Source: Puniceicoccales bacterium (GTDB lineage Bacteria; Verrucomicrobiota; Verrucomicrobiia; Opitutales; LL51). Taken from it: DNA of 64,000 nucleotides. A program made the translations under genes and the position numbers. The notes under the pieces are model-generated. The model did no database searches, was not told the DNA's origin, and saw nothing but the letters and a program-made list of their open reading frames with translations. Of the stretch, positions 4,389-56,033 are shown in pieces. Position 1 is the first letter of the stretch. Each line of letters starts with the position of its first letter. Where the stretch lies: assembly GCA_031270475.1 (NCBI GenBank), contig JAISXO010000018.1:105-64104 (forward strand). The letters run 5' to 3'.

Positions 4389-4620
4389 TTTTCTTAGAAA
4401 TTTGTTAACATTTCATCGTAATTTTATAGCTTTCCAATGGAGGATTGAGGTATGTCAAGAGATTTAAGAATAATTTCGCCGCACTGACATCCAATTTGGT
4501 CGCTGAAACACTCACAAATCTCAATTTATTTTCTCTATTATAATTTTCTTAGAAATTTATTGACATTTCATCGTAATTTTATAGCCTCCCAATGAAGGAT
4601 TGAGGTATGTCGAGAGATTT
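4311..4620 (+). repeat. Tandem direct duplication, 2 x 155 bp (4311-4465 and 4466-4620)
   Basis: The two units align end to end with a handful of substitutions. Each unit holds the last ~26 codons plus stop of the GT9 fusion gene, the intergenic region, and the RBS plus first 5 codons (MSRDL) of the downstream chaperone gene. Confidence 0.9.
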
Positions 4621-5107
4621 AATGGTACAGGTAATCAATGATTTTGGCCAAGAGATTGGTGCACAATTGGAAGTCGATGACGAAGCCTATTGCTGTTTAG
4701 CAGTGGGAGATGAATTTCAAGTTCATTTAAAATTTAATGAACATTTTAACGGAATAATTTTTTATACTGAACTCGGGGAAGTTCCCAATGTCGGGAAAAA
4801 AGAAGTTCTTCGCCATTACGTCATGCAGAATGGAACTATCGAATCCAATAATTTGACATTTTCCTACGATGAAGAAAGTAAACAATTGGGAATGGCATGC
4901 CTATTGCCCGTAACATTTACGAATTTGGATAACCTAAAAAAAATCCTCGAAAAGTTTATTGAACGCTATCAAAAAGAACACGAAGACATGGGACGATTTC
5001 TACAAGGTGAACTTCCCAAGGATGATATACAATTTGTAGATGATAGCGGTAGTACCAATGAAGCAATTCCCACAAGCGGCATAGATCCACAATTTATGCG
5101 TCTGTGA
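4607..5107 (+). CDS. Type III secretion class I chaperone (CesT/SycE-like)
   Basis: 166 aa, acidic. The layout FGQEIGAQLEVDDEAYCCLAVGDEFQVHLKFNEHFNGIIFYTELGEVP...LTFSYDEESKQLGMACLLP...LEKFIERY matches the class I chaperone template. It is a paralogue-like match to the ORF at 36594..37088. Confidence 0.65.
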   Translation: MSRDLMVQVINDFGQEIGAQLEVDDEAYCCLAVGDEFQVHLKFNEHFNGIIFYTELGEVPNVGKKEVLRHYVMQNGTIESNNLTFSYDEESKQLGMACLLPVTFTNLDNLKKILEKFIERYQKEHEDMGRFLQGELPKDDIQFVDDSGSTNEAIPTSGIDPQFMRL

Positions 5108-6156: not shown

Positions 6157-8643
<2,487 letters not shown>

Positions 8644-17700: not shown

Positions 17701-17846
17701 AGTGAAAACCTTCTCCAAAAAAAAACTACCTGTCAAGTTTTTTTTCGTTACTTTTTATAGTGAAAATTTTTTTATCTAATATTAAAACAATTCCCGATCA
17801 TTTTAATATGCTAAACCACATTTTTGAAAACTTCTTCAACACTTAA

Positions 17847-18926
17847 TCAGTTGAAAACCGCATTTTCTCGGGCTCGCTCGTCTTTGATATCCTTGACCCA
17901 ACGCAAAACTTCTGCAACCGGTGCCATTAAATCCCTCGGAATGTATTCCATGACGCCCGCCGTATCCAATAGCGCGTGTGCTAAAGGTACATTGCGCATA
18001 ATCGGTATCCCTTCCTTTTCCGCAACAGCTATCATTTGTTCCGCAATGATGCCAACTCCTTTCGCAATCACAATCGGTAGGGGAAAGACGGGGCGCTCAA
18101 AATCGTAGAGTAATGCAATTGCGACATGCTCCGGATTCGTGACTAAAGCCGAAGCCTGTTTTGTCTTTTGAGGGGGATCCTCTTCCATCATTTCTTTGTG
18201 AATTTGTTTGCGTTTACTCTTAACCTGCCCATCGCCCTCGGATTCCTTATACTCCCTTTTGACTTCATCTTTACTCATCTTAAGCCCCTCTTTCCACTTG
18301 TATTTCTGATAGGCATAGTCGAGAGCCGCCATTGCAATGTATGCAAAAATGACCATCTTTGCGAAATTAGTCATAATAGGGCCAAGAATACTCAATACAC
18401 CGGATAACTTGCAAAACGGTAATAAAATTAAATCGTCAAATACATCTTTTACAACACCGACCAACAGGAAGCCCAAAAAAATGATTTTTACCGTTGACTT
18501 CAGCAGTTCGACGAGACTTTTCATGGAAAACATCTGCTGCGCCTTTGACATGGGATTAATTTTACTGAGATCGGGCTGTATCGTTTTCGATGTAAATAGG
18601 ATCCCAACCTGTGCAAAATTTCCAATGAGTCCCATGAGTGCTACCACGAAAATCGCTGGGAAAACAATGCCTCCCGTCTTCATCAAAACACTCCAAAGCG
18701 CCTGACCAGTATACCCCCCCAGATCATTACATCGCCCAATAAATTGGGTAGGGATCAAAATCATCTCTGAAATATTCTCTAAATGTTGATTCCAGCCCAA
18801 TCCAACATAACAAAATGCACCGATTAAAGTAAGCGTCGAATTGACGTCCTGACTCTTCGCAATATTTCCTTTATTGCGCGCGTCACGTATACGTTTCGGT
18901 GTTGGATCTTCGGTTTTTTCGCTCAT
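17847..18926 (-). CDS. sctU: Type III secretion export-apparatus switch protein (SctU/FlhB family)
   Basis: 359 aa. Motifs present: N-terminal EKTEDPTPKRIRDARNKGNIAKSQD, four TM segments, MSKDEVKREYKESEGDGQVKSKRKQ, an autocleavage-site variant NPEH, and a C-terminal GIPIMRNVPLAHAL. Confidence 0.9.
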   Translation of the reverse strand: MSEKTEDPTPKRIRDARNKGNIAKSQDVNSTLTLIGAFCYVGLGWNQHLENISEMILIPTQFIGRCNDLGGYTGQALWSVLMKTGGIVFPAIFVVALMGLIGNFAQVGILFTSKTIQPDLSKINPMSKAQQMFSMKSLVELLKSTVKIIFLGFLLVGVVKDVFDDLILLPFCKLSGVLSILGPIMTNFAKMVIFAYIAMAALDYAYQKYKWKEGLKMSKDEVKREYKESEGDGQVKSKRKQIHKEMMEEDPPQKTKQASALVTNPEHVAIALLYDFERPVFPLPIVIAKGVGIIAEQMIAVAEKEGIPIMRNVPLAHALLDTAGVMEYIPRDLMAPVAEVLRWVKDIKDERARENAVFN

Positions 18927-18957
18927 TTATCCCATTCCTTTCACTTGCTATCGCTCC

Positions 18958-19746
18958 CTATTTTAAGAAATGATTAACAAAAAACGACATTTTACTTTGC
19001 GTGAAAAAATAGTAATGGAACAGTTTTCCCAGCAACGAATAATAAAATAGTAAAAAAAACATCGATAGCCAGCTTTTAACCGGCATTGCCATAAAAAACA
19101 CATTTAATTGTGGTGCAAAACGACTGATCATTCCCAAGCCAAACTCCGCAAGAAATAATACGATTAAAATCGGTGCTGAAAAGCAAAAAACGGACTCCAT
19201 AATCTCATCCGCAAACGACATCATAAATGCCGGGAAATTGACGTCAAATGTAGGGAAAAATGTAAATACAGGCCACATAATATAGGACTTATAAATCACG
19301 CCGAGGAAAAATAAAAATCCCCCCATCGAAAAAAACAGCGTTGCAATCATCTGAGTCAAAAAGCTTCCCAAAAGCGATGTCTGCGAACCAACAACGGGAT
19401 CAAATGTCATGGCCTGCGACGACCCTCTCTGAATATCAATAATGAATCCAACACTATCCGTAATATAAAAAATAAATCCCGATAAATAACCCAACATGGC
19501 CCCCAGGATAACCTCCTTGCAGATCGTTACGAAGATAATAAGCACCGGAATCTGTACCGTTGGTAACGTCGGATACACGGCATGGAAAAGGGGTAAGGCC
19601 ATGGCAAAAATGATGACATTGCGTCCCGTCCCCATGATGTATTGCTTGGCAAATACCGGCGTTAATGACAACGCTGCCGCCAAACGTATGATACACATCA
19701 TCATTAAAAATAAAACTGATGTTACTTCCTCTAGTCCCGCTCCCAT
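18958..19746 (-). CDS. sctT: Type III secretion export-gate protein (SctT/FliR family)
   Basis: 262 aa polytopic membrane protein between sctS and sctU. Its start overlaps the sctS stop (ATGA). FliR/YscT-like hydrophobic pattern. Confidence 0.85.
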   Translation of the reverse strand: MGAGLEEVTSVLFLMMMCIIRLAAALSLTPVFAKQYIMGTGRNVIIFAMALPLFHAVYPTLPTVQIPVLIIFVTICKEVILGAMLGYLSGFIFYITDSVGFIIDIQRGSSQAMTFDPVVGSQTSLLGSFLTQMIATLFFSMGGFLFFLGVIYKSYIMWPVFTFFPTFDVNFPAFMMSFADEIMESVFCFSAPILIVLFLAEFGLGMISRFAPQLNVFFMAMPVKSWLSMFFLLFYYSLLGKLFHYYFFTQSKMSFFVNHFLK

Positions 19747-20015
19747 TAATGAATAATCGTTGGAAAATTGGTAAACAGGCTATTGGCAAACGCGAGTAAC
19801 TCATCGCCGATCCAATAGGCCGATAGCATCAAAACCGTAACAGTAAAGAATAGTTTGATGGCAAATCCCAATGTTTGTTCTTGAATCTGGGTAAGGGCTT
19901 GTAACAAGCTCGTTATCAATCCCACACACGTCGCCACTAAAATGGGCGGCATCGATAACATGAGAATGAGTATCATTGCCTGCTCCGTGATACTAATGAT
20001 AAAATTCTGATCCAT
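19746..20015 (-). CDS. sctS: Type III secretion export-gate protein (SctS/FliQ family)
   Basis: LLQALTQIQEQTLGFAIKLFF is the SctS/FliQ signature. The internal Met (MDQNFIIS) gives the usual ~89 aa length; the track ORF extends to 20042. Confidence 0.85.
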   Translation of the reverse strand: MDQNFIISITEQAMILILMLSMPPILVATCVGLITSLLQALTQIQEQTLGFAIKLFFTVTVLMLSAYWIGDELLAFANSLFTNFPTIIH

Positions 20016-20070
20016 ACGCCTAGCCATTGTTTTTTTAGTCAAATTTTCGCAAATAGCAAGCCCTTAAACT

Positions 20071-22633: not shown

Positions 22634-24352
22634 TTACATCCTATTCACCCGCCTGAAACCCGTTCCGGGAGGAGGCTTACTAGGAGAACCATCAGCATTC
22701 CGCACTGCCCTTTGTTCAAGGGGTGGTGGCGTTTTAAGGACGCGAGTCGGGTGTTCTTCTGACTGGGACGCTGTTCCTCCCACAGGAAGACGATAAGCAG
22801 ACGATAAATTTCTATCAAGGAGCCACTGACGAGAAACCGACCCTTTGCGGCTCAGAGAATCCGACGCATCATCCGACTGGGACGTAGAATCATCCACATC
22901 CGACGAGGACGTAGAATCACCCAGAAAGGTCACCCGCCCCGACTTCCGTGGCGTCTTCACATGTCCTAGTTTGGTACTACAATCTGCCACAACTGTTGTT
23001 ACTTTATTATTACGCTCCAGGAAATGCTGTAATAACGATAGCAAGCCAAGCTTTCCTGTTGTTGCTGGCTTTACTGTTGTTGCTGGCTTTACTGCTTCAG
23101 GTGGAAAGGGTTTGCCGACGAGAAATTCTCTTTCCTCGGGAGTAACCTCTCCACTCTTTGCTAACAAAGACAATTTACCCCATAGACTTACTACGTCACC
23201 ATAGGAACGCGTATCAATACCCTTGAAATTAGGGAAATCCCTTGCTGTTCCTCCCTTAAAACCCAACGTTCCGAAGATATCGTCAGAGAATAATGTATCC
23301 TCGAATAGCGCTGTTAAGTTTTGACTTAGGAAAACATGGTATGTTCTCAATGTATACATATTTGTTAATGGAGGACTATCATAAACTTCAATCTCGGTCT
23401 CGATCAAATAATTCCCATCTGCCTTATCCTTGAATTCTATCGCAGGAAGACTATAATCGGCACTGAAACTTGTTCCATTTGGCTGTTTTACCCAGCCTTG
23501 GCTAGCCAAAACCGATAGGGCTTTTCCTTTCTGTTCATTCCCCTCTCCCTTCACAGTCATGGGATAGAAGTCCTTGATTTTATTAGAATAGTCCCTGTTC
23601 TGAGTAAAGATGTCATTGGCAACGCCTAAACCAGAAAACTTGATCGTTTCTTCAGCCTCCATCGGAAAATCCACCCTATCGCAACAAAATTTAACCTGAG
23701 CTTTGACGCTACTATCATCTTTCAATACTCCGGAGGGAATCATTGTGGGAGAAATGAGTAAAAAACGTCTCCTATTGGGATTGTGGCGATAAATCACTAT
23801 ACTAAAACCCGTTTTGAGATCATGAGAAATGCTAGGACAACTGATGGCAGCCAATATATTTCCGTAGAGATTTAAAACCTCACTGCCATTCTTAGCCTTT
23901 ACATCCTCCACCGTTGCAACCGACTTATCAGCAGGTTTTTTCCCGGGATACCAATAAAATTCTTTATCCGCAGAATGTGCCGGCACGAATATCGGCATTA
24001 CTGGCATCCAATATCTTTCCTCGCTTTTTTTCGAATTCGCATCATAACTCTTTCCGTCGGCAGCGAGCTTATAAAACCACAACGGTTGAACTCCTCTCTT
24101 TCCCCTAACAGTAGGATCAGCCGAAGCAGAGGTAAAAATAGTCGCTTCTCCCTTCTTCTTAGGAAGCTCCGCTTTCTGGAAATTAAGCGAAGCATCCACC
24201 TGAAAAACCAGAGATCTCTTGTTTTTGACGGTGTTCTTTCCTATTTTTGTTCCATCGGGCACCTCAAAGCTCACACTATCCCAGGCATTTGATAAAAGGG
24301 GTGTCATTAGAAACATCCCACTCAATAACTTATTTATAATTTTATAATCCAT
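22634..24352 (-). CDS. Hypothetical secreted protein
   Basis: 572 aa. N-terminus MDYKIINKLLSGMFLMTPLLSNAWDS is signal-like. The C-terminal third is low-complexity (Ser/Asp/Pro rich) and includes KPATTVKPATTG, encoded by an 18-bp x2 repeat at 23058-23093. No recognisable domain. Confidence 0.5.
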   Translation of the reverse strand: MDYKIINKLLSGMFLMTPLLSNAWDSVSFEVPDGTKIGKNTVKNKRSLVFQVDASLNFQKAELPKKKGEATIFTSASADPTVRGKRGVQPLWFYKLAADGKSYDANSKKSEERYWMPVMPIFVPAHSADKEFYWYPGKKPADKSVATVEDVKAKNGSEVLNLYGNILAAISCPSISHDLKTGFSIVIYRHNPNRRRFLLISPTMIPSGVLKDDSSVKAQVKFCCDRVDFPMEAEETIKFSGLGVANDIFTQNRDYSNKIKDFYPMTVKGEGNEQKGKALSVLASQGWVKQPNGTSFSADYSLPAIEFKDKADGNYLIETEIEVYDSPPLTNMYTLRTYHVFLSQNLTALFEDTLFSDDIFGTLGFKGGTARDFPNFKGIDTRSYGDVVSLWGKLSLLAKSGEVTPEEREFLVGKPFPPEAVKPATTVKPATTGKLGLLSLLQHFLERNNKVTTVVADCSTKLGHVKTPRKSGRVTFLGDSTSSSDVDDSTSQSDDASDSLSRKGSVSRQWLLDRNLSSAYRLPVGGTASQSEEHPTRVLKTPPPLEQRAVRNADGSPSKPPPGTGFRRVNRM

Positions 24353-30832: not shown

Positions 30833-31681
30833 ATGGAAAGCATTAAAAATATTAACAAGCGAAGCATTAATCGTGGAATAAGCATAGAATTGCTCATATT
30901 TTTGGGATTTTCATGCATAAGTTTTGGAAGCAGTTTCGAAGACCAATGGGAACGCGAAGAAATGGCGTTAATGCTGTTTCAGCAGCATTCTAACAGGCAA
31001 AAAGAGCTATTCAACAATAATCCAGCACTCGACGATCCCAATATGCGCCTATTAGAAATTCAAACAAACATAACGTTTCTAAAGGGATTGCAAAATTTAT
31101 CTCAAAAAGCAAGAGAATACAAATTAAAAAGTCTACATAAGGAACTATGTCAGAAACATGAGCTGCGAAAGCAAGTGGCAGCCGATCCAGCAATGAAAAA
31201 AAAGGTGGATAAACAACGCCAACAACACGCAAATTGGTTAAAAACCTGTTTCCAATATTCCGATGAAGCATTGGCAGTTGAAAGGAATAAAATGCAAGCG
31301 CAATTACGTACAGAACAGAACAGCAAGAATCCGAATCTGAATCTTATCTCTTTGCTAAATTTTCGATTGTGTGAATTAGACGCATTGAGAAAAGTTAAAT
31401 CAAACATGAAGATGGAAGAATTAGAGAATTTATGTCAATGGCACCAAATAATCGAAGAATTACCGCTAGAGAAATCAAATGGAGAGTTCCAACAAAACTT
31501 GGATGCCATACAAAATATGTTAGACAGAAATCAAGAAAATCCAGAAACATTCTCACAATGGCTCGGCGGTCCCATAATGAATCTAGAAACCATACGCAAT
31601 CATCTACAAATAATGAGCCAACCTACAATAGACTTCGAAGAAAAACCTCTCTTCGCCTTTAGCCCCTTTGGCTTTGATTAG
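30833..31681 (+). CDS. Hypothetical coiled-coil protein with N-terminal hydrophobic leader
   Basis: 282 aa. The leader INKRSINRGISIELLIFLGFSCISFGSS resembles those of the genes at 31806 and 34105. The rest is Gln/Lys/Glu-rich and helical-looking. Confidence 0.45.
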   Translation: MESIKNINKRSINRGISIELLIFLGFSCISFGSSFEDQWEREEMALMLFQQHSNRQKELFNNNPALDDPNMRLLEIQTNITFLKGLQNLSQKAREYKLKSLHKELCQKHELRKQVAADPAMKKKVDKQRQQHANWLKTCFQYSDEALAVERNKMQAQLRTEQNSKNPNLNLISLLNFRLCELDALRKVKSNMKMEELENLCQWHQIIEELPLEKSNGEFQQNLDAIQNMLDRNQENPETFSQWLGGPIMNLETIRNHLQIMSQPTIDFEEKPLFAFSPFGFD

Positions 31682-31805
31682 TGGCCCTAAATCTCCAATG
31701 AGGAAAAAGTATATTGGGGATTATAGGAAATTAATTTTCTATTTTTTAAAATTTTTCTATTTCTTCCTGACACAGTTTTTATTCTTAGTAAAAAATAACG
31801 TCGTT

Positions 31806-32395
31806 ATGGAAAATACCAACATAAACATCCCTAAAATATGCGTGGGAATAGTTTCTTTTCTTGCGATTTCTGGATAGGTTTTGGCGTCGTTCCTGTGCCC
31901 CAAAGGACCGTTCATGTCCCTCAAAATCCGGAATGGACACACAAAGAATATGGAAAAATAATCAGAGCCTAATTCGCCAATCCCAATAAAACCACCGCTA
32001 GCATCATCGATAAGCTAATGAAAAAGAAGGCATTTTCGGGACGAACTTTCGAAGCAACTCGAAATGCTTTTACAAATACTCCAAAGGTTCGTGTTAAGAA
32101 TGGGGAATTATCTCGACATTTTAATAAAAGGTTAGCATATGAAAACAGATTGGTAAATAATCTCAAATGTCTGCGTCGGGAAGTAAAAAAATCTAGCAAT
32201 CCACCAAGTTTAGAACTCACGCTGGAAAACTATGGCAGTCCAATGACGATACATATTTATTGCAAACGGTATTTCCCTATAGCCAACAGGCCAATGGATC
32301 AGAGTTTTTCGCTTTTTAGACTGATTCATTACTGTCCACCCAAAACCTTTGGGAAGAAATGTTTCAGAATTGCAAACGCGTCTGAAGCGTCTTAA
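31806..32395 (+). pseudogene. Disrupted paralogue of the gene at 34105..35022
   Basis: MENTNINIPKICVGIVSFLAISG parallels MKNIHTNIHKISVGIISFFVVSGIGFG. There is a 1-nt loss in the G-run at 31872-31873 (ctgg-atagg versus ctgggatagg), then an in-frame TAA at 31970-31972. The same corrected frame continues into track ORF 32018..32395. The upstream promoter-like sequence is also similar. Confidence 0.55.
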
Positions 32396-34104: not shown

Positions 34105-35022
34105 ATGAAAAATATCCATACAAATATCCATAAAATAAGTGTGGGAATAATTTCTTTTTTCGTAGTTTCTGGGATAGGTTTTGGCTCCGCTCCAGGCTTT
34201 CCCCCTTTTCTCGCGTTTTCTGAGATAGGGCTACCCTCTGTTTCAGAGCCGTTCTTTGCAACATCCCAAAATACCTATGGACATGAAAATTCATGGACGC
34301 GTGAAGAACTTAAAGCATTACTCAGATCCATATTTGACCCCAATGCAGCAAAAATGACTAAAGCCAAAATTGCTAACCAGCTGATACAGAACGGCCTTGT
34401 AAATCACACTCAACGGTCAACTGAAACTTGCATCACTTCTATAAAAGGGATTCTTAAGAAGGGTCCTATGTTACTAAATCGTCTCATTTATTTATTTGCA
34501 CAGCCTTTTCTAAATCGTCAAGGAAGAGCTGAACGGGAAGGCATTCTTGCGGACTTAGAGAAAATAATAAATAGTAAAGAACGTGGTTATTCCGAAAAAA
34601 CTCTAGATAACCTTCCCTCCTACAATAGAGCAATATGGCCTGATAAAGAGATTATAAGGATGTTACAAATAGCGGATGCGAATCAACTGTCATTGCAGAC
34701 AGAAGAAAATTCGATTGTTCTTTGGCCCCAGACAAAGGTAGCGGTTTTTGCAGTATTAAGGGAAAAAAACATCACTGCAGTGAAAATCTTCTATTCAGCC
34801 TTTAATCAAGCCTGTAAAGCTCGTTATGGGGTGAATCTTTTTGATTATACCAATAGCCAAATAAAAGAAAAAGGATACGAAAATCTTCCGCGGAATCAAG
34901 CCGTGAAACTTGTTTGGAAGCCGCTTATCAAATCTATTCGAGCAGAAATGAGGTGGCAGCGCAAGGGAAGTTATGAAAAGAGAAAGCAAAAACCAAGTAG
35001 CACAGCACAAGTGGCGGATTAA
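34105..35022 (+). CDS. Hypothetical protein with conserved N-terminal hydrophobic leader (intact family member)
   Basis: 305 aa. Leader is MKNIHTNIHKISVGIISFFVVSGIGFGSAPG. No recognisable domain. Confidence 0.5.
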   Translation: MKNIHTNIHKISVGIISFFVVSGIGFGSAPGFPPFLAFSEIGLPSVSEPFFATSQNTYGHENSWTREELKALLRSIFDPNAAKMTKAKIANQLIQNGLVNHTQRSTETCITSIKGILKKGPMLLNRLIYLFAQPFLNRQGRAEREGILADLEKIINSKERGYSEKTLDNLPSYNRAIWPDKEIIRMLQIADANQLSLQTEENSIVLWPQTKVAVFAVLREKNITAVKIFYSAFNQACKARYGVNLFDYTNSQIKEKGYENLPRNQAVKLVWKPLIKSIRAEMRWQRKGSYEKRKQKPSSTAQVAD

Positions 35023-35151: not shown

Positions 35152-35982
35152 TCATTCCTGGGAAGCTAAATATTCTCGACGTAAAAGACGATAGAATTTC
35201 ATGTTTTCGTATTTGCCTTCTTTTTTACAGAAATCATCTTTTTCACATTCCAATTTGAATCCGCACTTCTCAATAACACGTTGTGACCCAATATTGACAT
35301 TTAAATGATTGATATCCAAACGATTGAGGCCTAAATCCCGGAAAATATAGTCGACAACACGCCTGGCTACCTCCGTCATATACCCCTTGTTCCAATATTT
35401 TTTCGCTAACCAAAAGTGCATTTCAGCCCGATCGTGGGCGTGCTCTAACGTAAGGCCAATGCCTCCAATGAATCGATCTTCCCCTGGCAATGTAATCGCC
35501 CAATATAAAGAATGCCCCATCTCCATGGCGTAATTCAAATTCATCATATATATTTTTACACGATCGCGATCAAATGGCCAAGGCATAAAAGCAAGCATAT
35601 ATACCGTCTCGTAATCCGAAAAGACTTCCGTCAAATCATCCCAATCCTTCGAATGTATAGCACGTAAAACTAGGCGCTCCGTTCCCAAAACAGGAGCTAT
35701 TCCTAACCCCTTGAAATTTGGATCGCTTTCGAGGACAGGATGCTTCGCCTTTTCCTCTAGTACTCGCAAAACCTCCGACCCGGGATTGAGAACATATTTT
35801 TCAGGACCAAAACTTTTCTCCGCAGAAATCGCCCTATCACTTCGCGGAACACAATGGATCGGGAAAAACTTGTTCCCTACCGTTCTCTTCCCAATGGCAA
35901 AGCCAGCCAAAGCAATCAAAAAAGCAGTAACACCAATCCAATAATAACGTCTTGATTTTTTATTCATATTATTTTTCTCCAA
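35152..35982 (-). CDS. GNAT family N-acetyltransferase (RimJ/RimL-like) with N-terminal membrane anchor
   Basis: 276 aa. TM segment YYWIGVTAFLIALAGFAIG, then an Acetyltransf_3-like core (RLVLRAIHSKDWDDL...YWAITL...FIGGIGL...EMHFWLAKKYWNKGYMTE...NIGSQRVIEKCGFKLE). It is a paralogue of 36015..36581. Confidence 0.75.
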   Translation of the reverse strand: MEKNNMNKKSRRYYWIGVTAFLIALAGFAIGKRTVGNKFFPIHCVPRSDRAISAEKSFGPEKYVLNPGSEVLRVLEEKAKHPVLESDPNFKGLGIAPVLGTERLVLRAIHSKDWDDLTEVFSDYETVYMLAFMPWPFDRDRVKIYMMNLNYAMEMGHSLYWAITLPGEDRFIGGIGLTLEHAHDRAEMHFWLAKKYWNKGYMTEVARRVVDYIFRDLGLNRLDINHLNVNIGSQRVIEKCGFKLECEKDDFCKKEGKYENMKFYRLLRREYLASQE

Positions 35983-36014
35983 TTATGGTAATCATAAACA
36001 ACAAAAAATTCAAT

Positions 36015-36581
36015 TCATGCCTTAAATTCTCCGCGTAACTGACTGTAAAATTTCACATCTTCAAATTGTCCAAAACGTTTCACGTAGGCGCGTAACATAC
36101 CTTCAAACTTAAAGCCACACTTTTCAATGACACGCTGCGAACGGATATTGCGTATCATATGATTTACTTCAAGACGATTTAATTTCAAATCTTCAAAGGC
36201 GTATCTCACGATGCGACGGGCAGTTTCTGTTCCGTAACCTTGCCCCCAATACTCTTTTCCAAACCAATAATGCAACTCCGCCTTTTCATGTTCCGGAAAA
36301 ATCGATAACCCTACCGTCCCGATAAATACATTCTTCCTATCGTGGATTCCCCAAAAACAACCCACACCTGCCGCACACATATTATTGATGTGGTTGGCCC
36401 AATTGGCAGCGGCTTGAACCGTATAAGGCCAGGGCGCATAGGTTAACATCCAAACGGTTTCATAATCAGAGAGCAGATTAATGATAGCACCTAAGTCTTC
36501 TTCCCGTATTGGTTGTAACGTCAGGCGCTCCGAGGATACAACAGGACAATTCGCTAAGCCACTCGTATTAACAATGGACAT
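36015..36581 (-). CDS. GNAT family N-acetyltransferase (RimJ/RimL-like)
   Basis: 188 aa. ERLTLQPIREEDLGAI...FWGIHDRKNVFIGTVGLSIFPEHEKAELHYWFGKEYWGQGYGTE...NIRSQRVIEKCGFKFEG. Confidence 0.8.
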   Translation of the reverse strand: MSIVNTSGLANCPVVSSERLTLQPIREEDLGAIINLLSDYETVWMLTYAPWPYTVQAAANWANHINNMCAAGVGCFWGIHDRKNVFIGTVGLSIFPEHEKAELHYWFGKEYWGQGYGTETARRIVRYAFEDLKLNRLEVNHMIRNIRSQRVIEKCGFKFEGMLRAYVKRFGQFEDVKFYSQLRGEFKA

Positions 36582-36593
36582 TTCCTCTTTTCA

Positions 36594-37088
36594 TTAGGCT
36601 CCAAACATCATCATTCCCGGCATACCAATACCGCCATCAGCCGCAATGGCACTTCCTTCGGCTTCGCTATCGGTCATCGCCATCCATTCTTCGAAGCGTT
36701 TCGTATCCCAATGTTCCATTGCACTGACAAATTTCTCTAAAATATTGTAAAAAATATCATTATCAAGCATATTCATATCGCAATATTGTGTCAGTAAAAG
36801 TGTACCATCGGATGGATCGAGCGAAACATTTGCACCGGCCGTATCGCGCCAAAAATGACAACTTTCAAGAATTCCACGGTAAAAAACTGCCTCATCTGCT
36901 GGTAATGCACCGATATAAGCCAAAAAACAAAGTTGTTCTTTTTCAATATCAATGGAACATTTAACAAAATATTTTCCATCAAAAGCAAGATAACAGTCGT
37001 TACTTTCATCCAAGTCCAGTCCTTCGATTTTCAATTTGTCACCAAGTATTTGAACATACGTCCTAAAAGTATCCAAACAATTTTCCAT
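36594..37088 (-). CDS. Type III secretion class I chaperone (CesT-like)
   Basis: Starts at MENCLDTFRTYVQILGDKLKIEGLDLDESNDCYLAFDGKYFVKCSIDIEKEQLCFLAYIGALPAD...VSLDPSDGTLLLTQY...LEKFVSAMEHW. Acidic and about 164 aa. Its stop lies 13 nt upstream of the GNAT start. Confidence 0.65.
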   Translation of the reverse strand: MENCLDTFRTYVQILGDKLKIEGLDLDESNDCYLAFDGKYFVKCSIDIEKEQLCFLAYIGALPADEAVFYRGILESCHFWRDTAGANVSLDPSDGTLLLTQYCDMNMLDNDIFYNILEKFVSAMEHWDTKRFEEWMAMTDSEAEGSAIAADGGIGMPGMMMFGA

Positions 37089-38546: not shown

Positions 38547-39356
38547 TTGATGATGGATAATTGGAAAGATTTATTCGTTGTATCCACGCTTTATAGTGGA
38601 TTGTCGTTACACGCATTAGAACCCGTAGTTGTAGAAGAAGCACTTTTCGCATCTTTGCCAGAAGCACCCGCCAAGAATGTCTTATCTACTACTGTTGGGC
38701 AAAATACCCAGCATGATCGTCATTGGCAAGCTTACGGTCAATTTATTTTTTACAACACAGGACTTACCAGCTTCGGTCTAACTGCTCAGGAATTTGAGCA
38801 GATTATCGCCGGCATGAAATCCGCACTTAATGGCGAAAACCCTATTCTAAGCACGAAGGAGGAAATAAACAAGATGCAGCAATTTTTGGAAGACAAAGAA
38901 AAAGAACAAGTTGCAAATAATAAAAAACTCGGCGACGTGTTCTTGAAGGCAAAGTTAGCTGAACAAGGGTTCCAAAAAACACCTTCCGGAGTGGTTTACA
39001 AAATTATCCAACCAGGCAATGCGAAGCGTGCCAATGATGATTCTAACATCAGCATTGATTATATAGGAAAGTCAACCAATGGGAAAGTTTTCGAAAGCAC
39101 ATACGAGCGCAACGAAAAAGCCGTTGTCTATGTGGGCTCGCTCGTTCCCGGCTTTAGCGAAATAGTTAAACTAATCGGTGAAGGTGGCGAAGTGCAAGCT
39201 TTTATTCCGCCAGATTTAGCCTATGGAGATGAAACCGTTGGACCAATTCCCGGTGGATCGGTTTTAGATTTTTCCATTAAAGTTCATGAAATCATTCAAC
39301 CAATGTTGAAAATTGAAGAGCCAAAAGGAATTGACTTGAAAACTCTTTTAAAATAA
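38547..39356 (+). CDS. FKBP-type peptidyl-prolyl isomerase (Mip-like)
   Basis: The C-terminal FKBP domain is VVYKIIQPGNAKRANDDSNISIDYIGKSTNGKVFESTY...VPGFSEIVKLIGEGGEVQAFIPPDLAYGD. It is preceded by a long-helix region as in Mip proteins. Confidence 0.85.
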   Translation: MMMDNWKDLFVVSTLYSGLSLHALEPVVVEEALFASLPEAPAKNVLSTTVGQNTQHDRHWQAYGQFIFYNTGLTSFGLTAQEFEQIIAGMKSALNGENPILSTKEEINKMQQFLEDKEKEQVANNKKLGDVFLKAKLAEQGFQKTPSGVVYKIIQPGNAKRANDDSNISIDYIGKSTNGKVFESTYERNEKAVVYVGSLVPGFSEIVKLIGEGGEVQAFIPPDLAYGDETVGPIPGGSVLDFSIKVHEIIQPMLKIEEPKGIDLKTLLK

Positions 39357-39465: not shown

Positions 39466-41616
39466 TTAATGGGGCAACTCTAAGAATAATGACATGTTCG
39501 ATTCACTTCGACACTTTGGAAGTTGCACAGGTTTTGCAGCTCCTGCTGCCTCTCTCATTTTTAAAATAGTACGCGGTGACCGATGGATCGTAGCTTCGTC
39601 ATCGGAATGTCCCATATAGACTTCCGGCAAAGGTCCTCTCGTACTCATTTCCGAATATAATATCGGATACTGATTGGTCCTCACGATTTCGCCATTCATT
39701 AGCGCAAGATTTAAATTCCGAGATGGTAAAAATTTATCAAACAATTTCGCCTGAAAACCATTAGCTCCCGAACCAAAATGTAAATATACAATCAACGAAA
39801 TGCCTCCCAATCGAATCATCCCCATACCATCAGTATCAACATTTCTGGATTCTAGCATTCTCTGAAATTCCGGATCAAAATCAAAGGTGGATTCAATGGG
39901 GGAAGAGCAACAACAACAACAACAGCATAAATAACGTTTTAGACATTCCCAGCATCCACCAGGATTGCTTCCGCCGTTTCCAGCATTTAGCAAGTCAAAC
40001 GCCGTATCAACAAGGGAAATGATGTTAAAACGTCCCTGCGATGAGAACATAACCGTATTGCCATAAATATTATCGACAACTAGATCGAGTATGGCACAAG
40101 TTTCCTCATTGAGCTGAATTTCATGGGGAAATAGGTCACCACGACAAATTCTTTGAATGTCTTCCCAATCATAATCCAATAAAAAGGGAAGGTCCGTAAA
40201 ATGTGATTCCACGTCAATGCTATGCCTTTGACGATATAGATCGAGTGCCTTGTTGCATAAATCGACAACTCCCTCCGGATTAATCCGCTCATAGGTAAAA
40301 TGTTGATGTGCCAACAGATGTTTAATCTCATCCCAACAAATGATCAATTCCGGATTTTCAGGCAAAATCCAATGTTGATCATCATCCATATCAAAGGCAC
40401 TAGGATTAATGCATGCCTTAAGAAAATTAAATAAAAACATGCGATGATTATAGGCAATTTCCGAACAAATACCGCGATGCAATACATCTCTCGCCGAATC
40501 ACATGCCAAATATCCCAACGTTCTGTAGCCGTGTAAACAAGCCATCGTGACGACATCACGAAAAGCAAAATGATTAATCATATTTTCGTGACCAACAAAC
40601 GCATTGTAATTATCTACCGTTGTTTGATCGGCGGCAATACGTGGAGCTGATAGGAAATATCCAAAAAATCGTGGTGTTCTAATGTTATCGATAAACTCAG
40701 GAATCGCATCTTTAAATTGATTAATAATGAGTGGCAAAGCAATCTGCGCTAATCCGCCCCCCTGACTATGGCCCGTCACAACAAAACGAATATTACTCCG
40801 TTCATCTTCCGGGATTTGGTCTATGGCATTTTGAATACTTGTAAAAAGCGGATAAATAAAATCTAGATCCTCCCGCGATTGCAAAGGATTACTAATCTTG
40901 CCTTCGTCAACCATCGCTTCCAATACATCTCGAGACAAATTACAGGAGTTTATTTTAGCCAGGTAGCCCGCATGCACTGCTCCTTCAAATCCATACAACT
41001 CCGGATCGACTTCCATTGGGCTTGCATCATAATTTGTCGCCCAACTCGCACTAAATGCTCCCGATCCCGGCTGAAAATCTTCCCCTTGGCTCCCGCGAAA
41101 TACAGTAACGATGACGGGATATTGCCCATTCTTTAGAATAGCAACGTACCCTGCCAAATCGATTTCCGGAGAAAATCTCCCTAGCGTAAACATTTCCAAA
41201 GAGACATTTAACGCATTTCCGAGATGTGAACCTTCTCTAAGATTTCCATGTATACCGGTAAAATTTCGATCACAATTATACTCGTGATCGGTCTCCGAAA
41301 CATTAAATTCTTGATCGCCCGACAATAACAAACATTCATTGCGAAATTTGCCATTACCTTCCGAGTCTTTTTCCCGTTTCGTAATGGTATAACTACGCTT
41401 AATCAAATGTAGCAAATCGGGCTGCATTGCTCTAAACCACGATGCAACGTGAAATCCATCCCTATCTCTACGAACCAAGGAATGGGGAACTTCCATTTGC
41501 AACGACGACGCAGCATACGGCAATCTATCGCCAAATTCAAAATCGCTATCATTCGATGATCCACATCCCCACGCTCCCAGGCATGCCATCAATCCTATAC
41601 TAATCATTTCCTTCAT
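39466..41616 (-). CDS. Lipase class 3-like alpha/beta hydrolase lipoprotein with poly-Cys tract
   Basis: Starts near MKEMISIGLMACLGAWGCGSS (lipobox). The nucleophile elbow is FVVTGHSQGGGLAQIA. The C-terminal region has LCCCCCCCSS. Confidence 0.65.
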   Translation of the reverse strand: MKEMISIGLMACLGAWGCGSSNDSDFEFGDRLPYAASSLQMEVPHSLVRRDRDGFHVASWFRAMQPDLLHLIKRSYTITKREKDSEGNGKFRNECLLLSGDQEFNVSETDHEYNCDRNFTGIHGNLREGSHLGNALNVSLEMFTLGRFSPEIDLAGYVAILKNGQYPVIVTVFRGSQGEDFQPGSGAFSASWATNYDASPMEVDPELYGFEGAVHAGYLAKINSCNLSRDVLEAMVDEGKISNPLQSREDLDFIYPLFTSIQNAIDQIPEDERSNIRFVVTGHSQGGGLAQIALPLIINQFKDAIPEFIDNIRTPRFFGYFLSAPRIAADQTTVDNYNAFVGHENMINHFAFRDVVTMACLHGYRTLGYLACDSARDVLHRGICSEIAYNHRMFLFNFLKACINPSAFDMDDDQHWILPENPELIICWDEIKHLLAHQHFTYERINPEGVVDLCNKALDLYRQRHSIDVESHFTDLPFLLDYDWEDIQRICRGDLFPHEIQLNEETCAILDLVVDNIYGNTVMFSSQGRFNIISLVDTAFDLLNAGNGGSNPGGCWECLKRYLCCCCCCCSSPIESTFDFDPEFQRMLESRNVDTDGMGMIRLGGISLIVYLHFGSGANGFQAKLFDKFLPSRNLNLALMNGEIVRTNQYPILYSEMSTRGPLPEVYMGHSDDEATIHRSPRTILKMREAAGAAKPVQLPKCRSESNMSLFLELPH
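39907..39927 (-). repeat. Trinucleotide repeat encoding seven consecutive Cys
   Basis: The minus strand reads TGC TGT TGT TGT TGT TGT TGC, in frame with the lipase-like gene. Confidence 0.95.
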
Positions 41617-41960
41617 ATACATCCTTCTAATTGAATGACCTAAGCATAGCATGTGAATTTATTTTTACAACATATTTATGCAAAAAAATAAATATAAGAA
41701 AAACTTATTAAAATTATTAAAATATCCCCCATCTGAGTCATTGAGATACTTTTAATACAAATGCGATTGGCAAAAATTCGCCATTTATAAAATCATAAAA
41801 AACACGGAGTAATAGATATATTCAAACCGGTAAGCTCGAAAACATCTTCGAAACTTACCGGCCCAACAAGATAGAAAAGTATATATAAAACAAAAATACC
41901 GACACTATATGCCGTACCTTTCTGGATTACGGAAAACTTATCGAAATGCAAGAAAAAAAA

Positions 41961-48570: not shown

Positions 48571-49323
48571 AAGCCTTAAGACAATTTGAGCCATCCCTAA
48601 AAGCAATACAGATATTGCTCGCTTCCACTAATATTCACGTTAATCTGCCAGATAAGCAGGGAGAAACGCTATTGGTTGTTTTCGAACGGGCGGGAACGTC
48701 TCGAAAAAATAAAGAGTATGTTACTTGATGCTGGTGCACAGGAAACCGCCGATATACCGGAAGCCGAAGCCCCAATAGAAGAAGACACTGATGTATTGGA
48801 AGAAAAAGACGATGAAATGTCATCACTTCATGATCTATGTGATAGGAACCCATCCGATTTCGATTTCTCCAAAATAATACCGTTAATCAGAAACGGCACG
48901 CTGTTCGAGCAAGTAGATGAAGAAAAACAAATGAAATTGCAACAAATGCTTAATCAAGCGCGCGATCAATATGGGAATTCGCTTTTACATCGAGTTATAA
49001 TAATGGAATCGGTTCCCCTATTAAAAACATTGGTTGATTTTGGTCTCGACGTTAATATGAAAGGAAGGCAATCCCGTACACCTTTACACGGAATTTTAAT
49101 GCATCGTAATCCATCGCTAGAAATAATATCGACATTGCTTAGCGTTCCTGATATCGCGGTTAACTTGCCAGATGAAAATAACGAAACTCCATTAGCTCTC
49201 TATAGGAGAATGCAAAGTCTTTATAGGCAAACGCAAGATTCCCCTAATCAGAAAGAAATAGACGATCAGAAAAATAGAGTTCCTATTGCTTGATGCTGGC
49301 GCACAGGACTACTAAGGAGTGGT
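48571..49323 (+). pseudogene. Ankyrin-repeat gene, apparently disrupted (track ORF 48676..49293 is its largest piece)
   Basis: ANK motifs appear in three frames. Upstream there is ILLASTNIHVNLPDKQGETLLVVFERAG, then a stop. The main ORF begins mid-repeat (KIKSMLLDAGAQE) and contains GNSLLHRVI...GLDVNMKGRQSRTPLHG...VNLPDENNETPLAL. Just past its stop, another frame reads LLDAGAQDY. Confidence 0.5.
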
Positions 49324-50489: not shown

Positions 50490-51332
50490 ATGAGTAAAAA
50501 TTATTATATTAAAAATAGATTACTAAAAAATATCGCACTCGGAATCTTTTTTCCGGGCATTTTTGTGGGAAGTACCGATGCCAGTTTCAGCCAAGCTCAG
50601 AAGCATCGTACTGCCGCAAAACCGCCAGATATGGAACTATCACTCGAGGAACGATCACTCAACGAGGAGCTATTTCAGGCCCTAAAAGAGTCAGAGCCGG
50701 ATCTTGGCAAAATAGAACAATTGCTCGCCCAAGGTGCCAATCCTGACGCACGAAATCAATACAACGATACCCCATTGTTTCATGCAAAAAATGCAGAAAT
50801 AACTGCCCTACTACTCAATGCGGGAGCTAACGCTGACGCACGAAATGACTGCAACAATACCCCATTGTTTCATGCAGAGAATGCAGCAATAACTGCCCTA
50901 CTACTCAATGCGGGAGCCGACGTAGACGCACGAAATCAATACAACGATACCCCATTGTTTCATGCAAAGAATGCAGAAATAACTGACCTACTACTTAATG
51001 CGGGAGCTGACGTAAACGCACAAAGTAACTTGGGCGATACTCCATTACATGTTGCTTTATATCATTTTCAAAAAGACCCAAAACAGATAGAAAAATTATT
51101 GCAAAGAGGCGCAAAAATAGACGTAGCAAGCCGATCTGTAGACCATCCAAAAGGCAATACGCCATTGTTTATAGTACAATGGGCCGCCCAAAAAGGCCTT
51201 CGAAGGCTTCGCACCAGTCTCTTCCCTCATACTCCTTACAAACTGACCGATGACACTCGCATAGCATACGCTAAACTTCTACCGCTATTTTTTCTCCCTC
51301 CTAATCTCTGGCAGAACTTGAATAGCAATTAA
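50490..51332 (+). CDS. Ankyrin-repeat protein with N-terminal signal-like segment
   Basis: 280 aa. IALGIFFPGIFVGSTDASFS leader, followed by repeated DARNQYNDTPLFHAKNAEITALLLNAGA units. Confidence 0.8.
   Translation: MSKNYYIKNRLLKNIALGIFFPGIFVGSTDASFSQAQKHRTAAKPPDMELSLEERSLNEELFQALKESEPDLGKIEQLLAQGANPDARNQYNDTPLFHAKNAEITALLLNAGANADARNDCNNTPLFHAENAAITALLLNAGADVDARNQYNDTPLFHAKNAEITDLLLNAGADVNAQSNLGDTPLHVALYHFQKDPKQIEKLLQRGAKIDVASRSVDHPKGNTPLFIVQWAAQKGLRRLRTSLFPHTPYKLTDDTRIAYAKLLPLFFLPPNLWQNLNSN
50745..51014 (+). repeat. Intragenic 90-bp (30-codon) tandem repeats, 3 units
   Basis: GACGCACGAAAT recurs at 50745, 50835 and 50925. Units 1 and 3 are nearly identical at the DNA level. Confidence 0.9.
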
Positions 51333-54008: not shown

Positions 54009-56033
54009 TCAATTCCATTCAGTACTTGATTCTTGCGGATCTCCTTCAGTACTGGAATTTTTTATATCTTCGCGAATGAGACTTGTTTTCAGCATTATGT
54101 CTTCCAGTCTAACCTCATTATCATTAGGTTTTATGCTTTTGATGATATCTTCCGCTAAAAGTTTACTATCTAATATATTATTCTGTAATATCTTTACTTG
54201 TTTTTCCAATTCTTCCGTTTCTTTGTGCAGTTGCTCATAAGCTATTTGCTTCTCGGCGACGTCTTCGCTACTGTTTATTTTTGCTTCTGCAAGAGCCACT
54301 CTGGCTTCCGCCTTTTGTTTTTGCAATTCATGCAATTGGAGACGCTTTTCCTTTAATTCCGCCACTCCACTTCTCACCACTTCTTGGAGTTTAGGCAAAA
54401 CTCTTTCAAATTTGTTGCCACTGATCTCTTGTCCTTTTTTTAGTAGCTCCGGCGATACTTCCGTCACAAATTTACGAGCTGCAGAACGATTTTCTACCAT
54501 TCGATCGAATATATCTGAGGTCAATCTTACCTTTCCTGCTTCTTCCGGAAGAACAATACTATTAATGGCATCATCACTATATTCCCCTCCATGATCTCTC
54601 CGTTGTACGTCTGGAAGTTTAGTCAATTCCGCTTTCGCTTTAGTTAATTCCTCTTCAAGTTCTTTCTGTTTCTCCTTTTTAGCTACCTCCGCTGCTTTGG
54701 TCTCCGCTGTTATCGCTTTCATTTCGGGACTTGCGTCATCTTCCTCACTCCATCCACTTTGCATTTTTAATGCGTCATCTAATTCATCGCTTGCCCCCTC
54801 TTTTGGAACAAATAGTAACGGTCCTTCTCTGGCTGCTTCTGGAGTTGTATTTTCCGTTTGCGAGGTTGGTTTTTGGTCAACTTTCTTCAATTTAATTACA
54901 TGGATCGCATCGACAGTTACACCTTCACCTCCTGTTGGTGCCTCTCTACGTGGTGGTGACGGCGATTTCGGTATACTGGCCGCAGTGTCGTCAGACGTCG
55001 GCATTTTGGAAATCTTTCCCGGAGGAGGAGGCGGTGGTGGCGGTGGCGGTGGCGGTGCACCTGCTTTTACTTCTTCGGCTAGATCAGGCTGCGCAACTGG
55101 CTTCCCTAACCCCACAGATCCCGCTACAGTATCAGACGTCGATAATTTAGGCGGGGTTCCTGGCAGTGAAACTGGATTTGATGCCGTTGCTTCCGATTGT
55201 GGTTTTTCAAAGAATTTGCCCAAAAATGCAAATTCATTTTCTTGATGGTTATTTTTAATGATGTCTATCGCTGATCTATCGCTGCCAACTGACGTACTTA
55301 AAATCGCCTTTAATGCTTCCTCATCATCTTTAAAAGCATCGGCTACGCTTTTCAAAATATCAGCATTTCCCCTGGTAGCAGCTAAAGCAATCGGTGTCAA
55401 CCCTACACTCCCACGATGTAATAAGGCGTCCCTTAAAGCTTCTTTATCATCTTTAAGATTTTTTACAATAGTCTCAAAAATAGCAATGTTTTCATGGGTA
55501 GCAGCACAGACCAGCGGTGTATCGCCTGTGCTATCTTCTCCAGTTAGAACTGTTTTCAATGTTTCTTTATTACCTTGACAGCCATCAACCGCAGCATTGA
55601 AAATAGCCGTTTGGTCATTGGATGCAGACCATGTCAATAGTGTCTGACCGCCACCGAGACCTCCTATATGTTGCCCTAGAATTTCTGCTACGCCTTCCGG
55701 ATGGACATTCTTTAAGGTATTCCTTGTCATCTCGGGAGTTACGTTCCAATTCTGAACCGCTTTGGCTAACTGTTGGCTTTTCGCCTGAACCATTTCAGGA
55801 GACGCATTGCGTTCGCCACTTCCCCGGACCTGAGATCCTTCTCCCATCTGTCCTTTAATTTTTACGTGTTTCGTCCTCAAAGTATTACTAGACCCTCCGA
55901 ACAAAAACAGCCCAACTGCGCACATCCCTTGTTTAAAACCCAAACTACCAACTTCATCTTTACCTTGACGAGCTATGTCGCGACATAGATCCCATCGGCT
56001 TAAGTTAGTACAATCATTTTGTATTCCACTCAT
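54009..56033 (-). CDS. Candidate secreted effector: ankyrin-like repeats, 12-Pro tract, WH2-like motif, acidic Trp patch, coiled coil
   Basis: 674 aa with no signal peptide. ANK-like units cover residues ~130-260 (GDTPLVCAATHENIAIFETIV, GLTPIALAATRGNADILKSV). Other elements are P327-P338, VDAIHVIKLKKVDQ (375-387) and SDELDDALKMQSGWSEEDD (415-433). The C-terminal ~230 aa is Glu/Lys-rich and heptad-like. Confidence 0.6.
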   Translation of the reverse strand: MSGIQNDCTNLSRWDLCRDIARQGKDEVGSLGFKQGMCAVGLFLFGGSSNTLRTKHVKIKGQMGEGSQVRGSGERNASPEMVQAKSQQLAKAVQNWNVTPEMTRNTLKNVHPEGVAEILGQHIGGLGGGQTLLTWSASNDQTAIFNAAVDGCQGNKETLKTVLTGEDSTGDTPLVCAATHENIAIFETIVKNLKDDKEALRDALLHRGSVGLTPIALAATRGNADILKSVADAFKDDEEALKAILSTSVGSDRSAIDIIKNNHQENEFAFLGKFFEKPQSEATASNPVSLPGTPPKLSTSDTVAGSVGLGKPVAQPDLAEEVKAGAPPPPPPPPPPPPGKISKMPTSDDTAASIPKSPSPPRREAPTGGEGVTVDAIHVIKLKKVDQKPTSQTENTTPEAAREGPLLFVPKEGASDELDDALKMQSGWSEEDDASPEMKAITAETKAAEVAKKEKQKELEEELTKAKAELTKLPDVQRRDHGGEYSDDAINSIVLPEEAGKVRLTSDIFDRMVENRSAARKFVTEVSPELLKKGQEISGNKFERVLPKLQEVVRSGVAELKEKRLQLHELQKQKAEARVALAEAKINSSEDVAEKQIAYEQLHKETEELEKQVKILQNNILDSKLLAEDIIKSIKPNDNEVRLEDIMLKTSLIREDIKNSSTEGDPQESSTEWN
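55020..55055 (-). repeat. Twelve consecutive proline codons (CCN)12
   Basis: The plus strand reads GGAGGAGGAGGCGGTGGTGGCGGTGGCGGTGGCGG, in frame with the gene at 54009..56033. Confidence 0.95.

Follow-up and report, generated by a model that had tools for sequence, protein, structure and literature searches.

The window analysed here, 64,000 nucleotides of contig JAISXO010000018.1 from a Puniceicoccales bacterium (assembly GCA_031270475.1), encodes a type III secretion (T3S) chaperone of the CesT family, chapA (36594-37088, minus strand), immediately upstream of GNAT1 (36015-36581, minus strand), a RimJ/RimL/YdaF-like acetyltransferase of the GNAT superfamily. Homologs of the two genes follow each other directly and on the same strand at every one of the 21 distinct loci, representing about 19 genomes, that were collected by context look-ups and a scan of species-representative genomes. 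This arrangement is far beyond chance and is best explained by a dedicated module of two proteins, chapA and its GNAT1-type acetyltransferase, whose genes are transcribed together as an operon. The pair is a conserved, lineage-specific unit that, from the sequences at hand, appears to be single-copy. The leading, if still tentative, reading of its function is that of a T3S chaperone with its effector.

The chaperone-acetyltransferase pair

The product of chapA (164 aa, isoelectric point (pI) 4.1) matches Pfam CesT (PF05932) with 61.2 bits against a cut-off of 22 (E 1.3e-16). Its AlphaFold2 (AF2) model, with a predicted local distance difference score (pLDDT) of 81 and a predicted template-modelling score (pTM) of 0.73, displays the alpha-beta3-alpha-beta2-alpha class I fold. 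At E<=1e-3, Foldseek returned 48 matches for this model, the best 45 being T3S chaperones and the other three, all low-ranked, YbjN chains. Leading the list are ExsC, ShcA, SycH, CesT (also in complex with CsrA), VecA, SicP, and SycE, with ExsC as the best structural match (3kxy, E 9e-9). Size, acidity, fold, CesT match, and the presence of an injectisome in the same genome are all those of a class I chaperone, and both sequence and predicted fold support chapA as a true member of this class. Residues 143-164 are modelled as a disordered acidic tail, which comparison of orthologs shows to end in a conserved MMMFGA, varying within the family as MMMFGA/IMLGA/FMMGV. Unrelated stand-alone CesT relatives likewise carry a flexible tail with a short hydrophobic end motif, so the tail is a trait of the family and not specific to the GNAT association.

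Between chapA and GNAT1 lies a spacer of 12 nt (36582-36593, minus strand) that, read directly from the DNA, is filled by a strong Shine-Dalgarno sequence for GNAT1, AAGAGGAAA. The two genes share a reading frame, with stop codons between them. GNAT1 (188 aa, pI 8.3) is followed on the same strand by a paralog, GNAT2 (35152-35967), whose start is most likely ATG 35967 rather than the alternative TTG 35982, since GGAG precedes this ATG and all GNAT2 orthologs begin with MNKKS or MNKKQ at that point; a protein of 271 aa and a gap of 47 nt after GNAT1 would result. No terminator-like minus-strand site was found between the three genes in a scan in which promoter and terminator counts were no better than those of shuffled sequence. 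The original prediction, made from the letters of the window, had described three minus-strand open reading frames (ORFs) here, a class I CesT-like chaperone followed by a 188-aa RimJ/RimL-like GNAT and its paralog. All three are present with Pfam support, and the class I assignment and the paralogy agree with the present analysis. The close spacing also stands, but the gaps of 13 and 33 nt become 12 and 47 nt.

Both acetyltransferases belong to Pfam Acetyltransf_3 (PF13302), GNAT1 with E 4.5e-37 over residues 19-158 and GNAT2 with E 2.2e-32 over residues 103-243 (counted on the ORF 35152-35982); neither has a YopJ-family Pfam match at E<=0.1. They are old paralogs, about 44% identical over 169 shared columns, and fall into separate clades. 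The nearest NCBIfam models to both are RimL, RimJ, SpeG, and PseH, all far below their equivalog cut-offs, which means that the two proteins are not orthologous to RimJ, RimL, or SpeG. The nearest PDB entries to GNAT1 are YdaF (1nsl), 3fbu, TTHA1799, RimL, SpeG, and MccE. The acetyl-CoA motif W-G-x-G-Y-G/A/M-T-E and the motif N-x-x-S-x-R-V-I-E-K-C-G-F are conserved in both paralog clades, WGxGYG and NxxSxRVIEKCGF being invariant or nearly so for GNAT1, and GNAT1 and GNAT2 have the family-specific segment SDYETVYMLTYAPWPYT in common.

At its N-terminus GNAT1 has 17 uncharged, Ser/Thr/Asn-rich residues with the motif GL-x3-P-x3-S-E-R-L. Once starts are corrected, all GNAT1-type proteins have 13-24 almost uncharged residues before the fold with the pattern GL-x3-P/L-x3-S/T-E-R-L, and a Ser/Thr/Asn/Pro/Gly content of 31-53% that is compatible with a T3S signal and not specific for one. 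GNAT2 begins with MNKKSRR (net +4), followed by a hydrophobic segment of 19 aa at residues 8-26 (35890-35946, minus strand; YYWIGVTAFLIALAGFAIG) with a mean Kyte-Doolittle value of 1.7, and then by KRTVGNK (net +3 over 15 aa), as calculated from hydropathy and charge. The N-terminal transmembrane anchor proposed originally is thus matched by a hydrophobic segment with basic residues on both sides, while the linker behind it measures about 70 aa instead of about 90. Within 25 aa past this segment there are 0-4 cysteines per ortholog, most orthologs having some. A variable stretch comes after the anchor and leads into a conserved helix-like segment, EVLRxLEExAKHP...DPN..GL..AP.

Four neighbourhoods of the pair are found across the clade, namely DUF374/rpsT, ftsQ-hexapeptide/cysS, hisS-FeS/lptF, and rearranged variants. 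The chaperone and GNAT1 are separated by 1-13 nt at annotated boundaries and by 17-57 nt where starts were corrected. Only in one lineage, the 'trio' lineage, does GNAT2 follow the pair; here the three-gene arrangement of the original prediction is kept, with one flank (DUF374, rpsT, Mip, lipase) conserved and the other varying. Three more divergent lineages retain the pair without GNAT2 in wholly different neighbourhoods. Pair-only contexts are ftsW-rng-ddl-ftsQ-hexapeptide / pair / cysS (loci L004, L006, L020, and L021) and serS-proS-hisS-FeS / pair / lptF (loci L023 and L027). In the pair-only lineages identity falls to 29-40% for the chaperone and 44-52% for the GNAT, and their single GNATs group with GNAT1, not GNAT2. 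In one locus, L020 from metagenome-assembled genome (MAG) Gsp477_bin142, the alignment of the GNAT1-type gene (6491-7019) breaks into two parts that lie in different frames (query 1-86 and 90-185), which reflects either a frameshift pseudogene or an assembly error.

Each of the 14 species genomes scanned gave exactly one locus. The border of the GNAT family is sharp, with scores dropping from 145 to 88 bits outside Puniceicoccales/Opitutales, and all 44 matches of a chaperone-family alignment search fall within the same clade. P0132, a stand-alone CesT relative from outside it, has no GNAT gene beside it. Among the loci examined no GNAT1-family member lacks the chaperone, and neither family was found alone inside the clade; orthologous GNATs without the chaperone, which the original prediction named as the counter-example, did not turn up. 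A metagenome scan for chaperone-less GNAT1 relatives produced one further close locus, and the chaperone is present there too. The best 150 of 2,930 profile matches contain no Rosetta-stone CesT::GNAT fusion. In rate of divergence, chapA and GNAT1 are similar to rpsT and DUF374 and slower than Mip and lipase; GNAT2 evolves faster than GNAT1 (41-76% versus 53-81% identity among orthologs).

The strict co-inheritance of chapA and GNAT1 through several genomic moves, with no GNAT1-family member seen without the chaperone, makes it very likely that the two are directly linked in function. The contrary view is that they are merely co-transcribed, with chapA serving cargo encoded elsewhere and the GNATs sharing its regulation without binding it. 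Multi-cargo class I chaperones encoded apart from their effectors are established, a second chaperone (chapB, below) stands alone in the window, and GNAT1 is without a canonical binding domain. Nevertheless, the pair has relocated jointly through at least four neighbourhoods with neither family found alone inside the clade, and strict adjacency at 29-45% sequence identity is rarely kept by co-regulation alone, which leaves simple co-transcription an unlikely account.

A small acidic protein encoded upstream of a GNAT with tight spacing also resembles the order of GNAT toxin-antitoxin (TA) operons, and a toxin-like GNAT module was the alternative named in the original prediction. GNAT1 would then be a growth-arresting toxin neutralised by the CesT-like protein and possibly freed by titration or by T3S system (T3SS)-mediated secretion of the neutraliser. 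Such a T3SS-coupled variant is conceivable, as the Shigella type III secretion apparatus is reported to secrete antitoxins of GNAT-type TA modules (PMC5658099). However, none of 59 PDB matches up to E=10 is a named TA toxin, RimL, RimJ, SpeG, MccE, and AAC(6') types being found instead, and the partner combines a CesT fold with a disordered tail in place of a DNA-binding ribbon-helix-helix (RHH)/DUF1778 domain. The single locus per genome in the 14 species, a divergence that tracks neighbouring housekeeping genes, the lack of any mobile-element context seen, and the absence of PADLOC matches likewise speak against a toxin, making this the most improbable of the explanations considered. A role in anti-phage defence was discarded as PADLOC gave no matches.

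Injectisome, host association, and a second chaperone

The injectisome is represented in the window by a block of export apparatus genes (17847-20042, minus strand) supported by Pfam Bac_export_1/2/3. It comprises sctS (19746-20042, Pfam Bac_export family), sctT (18958-19746, NCBIfam SctT TIGR01401 with 206 bits against a cut-off of 163), and sctU (17847-18926, NCBIfam SctU TIGR01404 with 368 bits against a cut-off of 358), all on the minus strand. The flagellar models FlhB and FliR remain below their own NCBIfam cut-offs at sctU and sctT. That SctU and SctT pass their equivalog cut-offs, unlike the flagellar models, identifies the T3SS of this genome as non-flagellar. The sctSTU/prmC/trmD region is flanked by two minus-strand ORFs of 460 aa (16354-17736) and 572 aa (22634-24352), neither with a Pfam or NCBIfam match, that could be T3SS-associated or effector proteins.

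Two proteins of the locus match a Puniceicoccales MAG at 100% identity, and in view of these exact matches a chlamydial origin, at first suggested by Mip, the scattered T3SS genes, and the GC content, was rejected. Related MAGs (codes Ct408, Cc175, Cd354, Gsp477, Gx481, Im510, Ncb351, and Pcl387) derive from hindgut metagenomes of lower termites that harbour flagellates, for the most part Kalotermitidae (supplement of PMC11257099). In the 'Nucleococcus cluster', Verrucomicrobia live as intranuclear or cytoplasmic symbionts of termite-gut protists and have genomes of about 1 Mbp (PMC8204192), and Ca. Nucleococcus is included among 'putatively endosymbiotic Opitutales' (PMC11257099). One chaperone ortholog is located on an 878-kb contig. 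We infer that the bacterium of the window is a member of the Nucleococcus cluster; the pair-bearing, T3SS-carrying Puniceicoccales clade probably consists of protist endosymbionts. A literature search for Puniceicoccales together with T3SS found nothing.

Several other genes of the window are of interest in a host-associated bacterium. Ankyrin-type eukaryote-like domains are typical of the effectors of intracellular symbionts, and three ankyrin-repeat proteins are encoded at 48676-49293 (plus), 50490-51332 (plus), and 54009-56033 (minus). A Mip-like FKBP with FKBP_N and FKBP_C domains (38547-39356, plus) adjoins the module in relatives and evolves fast (37-59% identity). A class-3 lipase-like protein of 728 aa (39466-41652, minus) is another neighbour of the module conserved in relatives. 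It contains a run of seven cysteines (LCCCCCCCSS, 39907-39927) resembling the 'cysteine string' of eukaryotic palmitoylation, a feature that makes this lipase a candidate host-targeted protein. Between fabI and GNAT2, where the region is variable, lie two plus-strand ORFs (34105-35022 and 31668-31877, the latter looking truncated). These show the similar N-termini NIHKISVGIISFFVVSG and NINIPKICVGIVSFLAISG, have no family matches, and may represent a lineage-specific family of membrane or secreted proteins.

The second CesT-family chaperone of the window, chapB (4607-5107, plus strand; 166 aa, pI 4.5; Pfam CesT E 3.6e-13), is only 23% identical to chapA. It stands alone, without an obvious adjoining cargo gene, and about 1 kb devoid of ORFs of at least 100 aa separates it from gyrB. 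The two chaperones meet in the best relatives of chapA from outside Puniceicoccales in the profile search, proteins of 479-617 aa in which CesT domains are fused to a Ser/Thr/Tyr-type kinase. The order in these fusions is a chapB-like domain, a chapA-like domain, and a tyrosine kinase-like (TKL)-type protein kinase (L024 6001-7854; L026 3034-4746; P0124, P0126, P0128, P0131, and P0133). In P0131 the first domain is chapB-like (42% identity, E 4e-37) and the second chapA-like (32%, E 2e-25); the chapA-like domain of P0124, at 46% identity, is closer to chapA than some Puniceicoccales paralogs are. By Rosetta-stone logic, the tandem fusion of chapB-like and chapA-like domains in P0131, P0128, and P0124 suggests that chapA and chapB may form a heterodimer. 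The AF2 model of P0131 is of low confidence (pLDDT 61, pTM 0.45), from which secondary structure but no domain packing can be read. Metagenome contigs also encode tandem double-CesT proteins of 262-341 aa without a kinase (P0125, which looks very AT-rich, P0212, P0224, and P0228), and these may be single-chain chaperone 'heterodimers'.

The kinase fusions are likely of eukaryotic origin. Their contigs belong, together with the Puniceicoccales loci, to one Joint Genome Institute (JGI) sample series of termite-gut metagenomes, and ORFs of at least 100 aa cover 23-33% of the fusion contigs versus 74-96% of the bacterial loci. The fusion genes have no Shine-Dalgarno sequence and instead carry, within 15 nt of the ATG, a TCAYW initiator-like motif of the kind typical of parabasalid genes. 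For the kinase domain of the fusions, every top PDB match is a eukaryotic TK/TKL kinase, for example RIPK1, TAK1, or CTR1. The window has a kinase fragment of its own, an ORF of 155 aa (408-875, minus strand) with the catalytic-loop sequence HHDLKIENIM that does not reach the Pfam cut-off and seems truncated or degenerate; as a source of the fusion kinases it was rejected, having no specific similarity to them. In the genome of the parabasalid Tritrichomonas musculus, a stand-alone CesT-like protein (KAK8870925.1; P0143/P0275) is annotated on a 3.8-Mb contig. It shares 31% identity with chapA, and the polybasic, CaaX-like tail at its end, KKAKKQKKCNIC, suggests eukaryotic prenylation. Literature searches on CesT-like proteins in Trichomonas found nothing. 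Altogether, the evidence points to homologs of both symbiont chaperones in parabasalid genomes, and the fusions may be proteins of the host assembled from symbiont chaperones that it captured.

Possible delivery to the host or control inside the bacterium

Where a bacterium is host-associated and carries an injectisome, a CesT-family gene with a neighbour is by default read as a chaperone beside its effector, and this is the reading tentatively favoured here. In the mechanism envisaged, chapA, probably as a heterodimer with chapB, would bind GNAT1 inside the cytoplasm of the bacterium. As GNAT1 has no separate chaperone-binding domain, chapA would keep the N-terminal portion competent for secretion and then dock GNAT1 at the injectisome. 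Delivered into the flagellate host, GNAT1 would use host acetyl-CoA to acetylate a conserved protein or amine of that host. GNAT2, where present, would be a duplicated copy directed to a membrane.

Supporting this reading are the CesT family membership, class I fold, and acidity of chapA, the SctS/T/U genes in the window, the unbroken adjacency in four neighbourhoods, the Shine-Dalgarno sequence in the spacer, and the confinement of the GNAT1/GNAT2 family to the clade, along with the uncharged, Ser/Thr/Asn-rich N-terminus of GNAT1 and the existence of GNAT-fold effectors that use other secretion routes, VipF and Amuc_2172. Origin from lower-termite MAGs, the ankyrin proteins, the Mip-like FKBP, the poly-Cys lipase, and intranuclear relatives (PMC8204192) fit the corresponding lifestyle. 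The apparent capture of chapA- and chapB-like domains by a host would also be explained most easily if the ligands of these chaperones reach the host cell.

Several observations weigh against delivery of the acetyltransferases. With only 13-24 residues preceding the first GNAT strand, GNAT1 has no room for a chaperone-binding domain of 50-100 aa, which would oblige the chaperone to hold on to a portion of the GNAT fold. This is not impossible, as the binding regions of YopH and YopE overlap regions that are functional after delivery. The linker of GNAT2 could serve as a chaperone-binding region, but GNAT2 is missing from the pair-only lineages, and its N-terminus, basic and then hydrophobic, looks more like a Sec/signal recognition particle (SRP) signal-anchor than a T3S signal. 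The rpsT- and DUF374-like rate of chapA and GNAT1 is atypical of fast-evolving effectors and is exceeded by the putative surface or secreted proteins Mip and lipase. Finally, the closest relatives of the GNATs are the bacterial housekeeping enzymes RimJ, RimL, and SpeG, and ExsC, the best structural match of chapA, is a regulatory rather than a secretory member of the fold.

Much of this would be accounted for by a regulatory or adaptor module acting inside the bacterium, a serious though somewhat less probable alternative. In it, chapA would sequester, activate, or bring substrates to a cytoplasmic or membrane-tethered RimJ/RimL-like acetyltransferase. By analogy with ExsC-ExsE-ExsD, CesT-CsrA, and Scc4-RNA polymerase, precedents for partner switching, acetylation might be coupled to T3SS activity; alternatively, T3S substrates might be presented for acetylation before export. 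The presence of ExsC and the CesT-CsrA complex among the structural matches, the missing binding-domain-sized extension of GNAT1, the resemblance of GNAT2 to a Sec/SRP-inserted bacterial membrane protein, and the housekeeping-like rate of the pair are all in agreement with such a role. The nearest GNAT relatives are, moreover, protein N-terminal acetyltransferases, and the natural fusions place the same chaperone domains in cis with a kinase, an adaptor-plus-enzyme architecture. Acetylation of a T3SS component within the bacterium also has a precedent in enterohaemorrhagic Escherichia coli (EHEC), where the GNAT toxin AtaT is reported to acetylate the translocator EspB (PMC7957018). On the other hand, no regulator-type partner was identified, and the kinase fusions, being apparently eukaryotic, may not report on a bacterial mechanism. 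The module is limited to a host-associated, T3SS-bearing clade rather than widespread, and the retention of two paralogs in apparently small genomes (878-kb contig) suggests a host-directed role.

A far-reaching version of the chaperone/effector reading combines the pair with the fusions. GNAT1 and GNAT2 would be the first GNAT-fold T3SS effectors, escorted by chapA and chapB from endosymbiotic, possibly intranuclear, Puniceicoccales into termite flagellates, and parabasalids would have captured the chaperone pair and fused it to TKL-type kinases, the result being an 'integrated decoy' by which effectors are bound and phosphorylated on arrival. This complete scenario is a long shot.

Injection of the GNATs would bring a new enzyme fold into T3SS effector biochemistry and offer a first molecular entry point to the ways in which verrucomicrobial endosymbionts manipulate termite-gut flagellates. 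Should the chaperone regulate the enzymes instead, a T3S-chaperone fold would for the first time be seen to control an acetyltransferase, and secretion activity would be tied to protein acetylation. In both cases, the module is a clean, strictly conserved two-gene system that is easily tested. The apparent occurrence of the chaperone domains in parabasalid genomes, kinase-fused or with a prenylation-like tail, points to symbiont-host gene exchange of a family thought specific to bacterial secretion.

Relation to known chaperone and acetyltransferase systems

The module is most readily compared with the class IA chaperone/effector pairs SycE-YopE, SicP-SptP, CesT-Tir, ShcA-HopA1, and VecA-VepA. 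As in these, a small acidic CesT-fold gene lies beside its candidate cargo in a genome with an injectisome, and the chapA model superposes on class IA chaperones with target-normalised template-modelling (TM) scores of 0.63-0.87. In contrast, the effectors of class IA pairs contain an unfolded binding domain of 50-100 aa, whereas GNAT1 is compact with about 17 residues before the fold. The present system also differs in belonging to a verrucomicrobium with a protist host, and is known from sequence and predicted structure.

ExsC-ExsE/ExsD of Pseudomonas aeruginosa and CesT-CsrA of enteropathogenic E. coli (EPEC) illustrate that the fold is able to bind and control non-secreted cytoplasmic proteins, and both ExsC and CesT structurally match chapA. 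Their partners are regulators of transcription or translation, while the module described here has an enzyme as partner; to our knowledge, no GNAT partner has been described for regulatory chaperones of the ExsC or CesT type. The SycN/YscB and Scc1/Scc4 heterodimers resemble chapA and chapB in consisting of two divergent CesT-fold proteins, homologs of which are fused in tandem in the case of chapA and chapB. These known heterodimers serve the gatekeepers YopN/CopN, whereas here one member is tied to a GNAT and the pairing is suggested by the fusions only.

Among acetyltransferases, effectors of the YopJ family share the activity proposed for GNAT1, acetyl-CoA-dependent acetylation in the host after T3SS delivery, but have an unrelated fold, the cysteine-protease-like fold of clan CE. 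All T3SS acetyltransferases known to us are YopJ-type. Exported GNATs that act on host proteins do exist, including VipF of Legionella and BspF of Brucella, which use type IV secretion systems (T4SS), Amuc_2172 of Akkermansia, and Rv3423.1 of Mycobacterium tuberculosis; VipF (PMC12773746) and Amuc_2172 (PMC12914800) are GNAT-fold effectors of non-T3SS routes. Likened to GNAT1 by their shared superfamily only, these four proteins leave the cell by other routes, and none is known to have a CesT-type chaperone. In the TacAT, AtaRT, KacAT, and GmvAT systems, as in the pair, two genes form an operon in which a small acidic protein precedes a GNAT, but antitoxin fold, toxin subfamily, and distribution differ. 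Neither a GNAT-fold T3SS effector nor a chaperone-GNAT pairing was found in the literature searched, in line with the original view that translocated GNATs would constitute a new class. On this comparison, the module is rated as a chaperone/partner system with a new class of partner.

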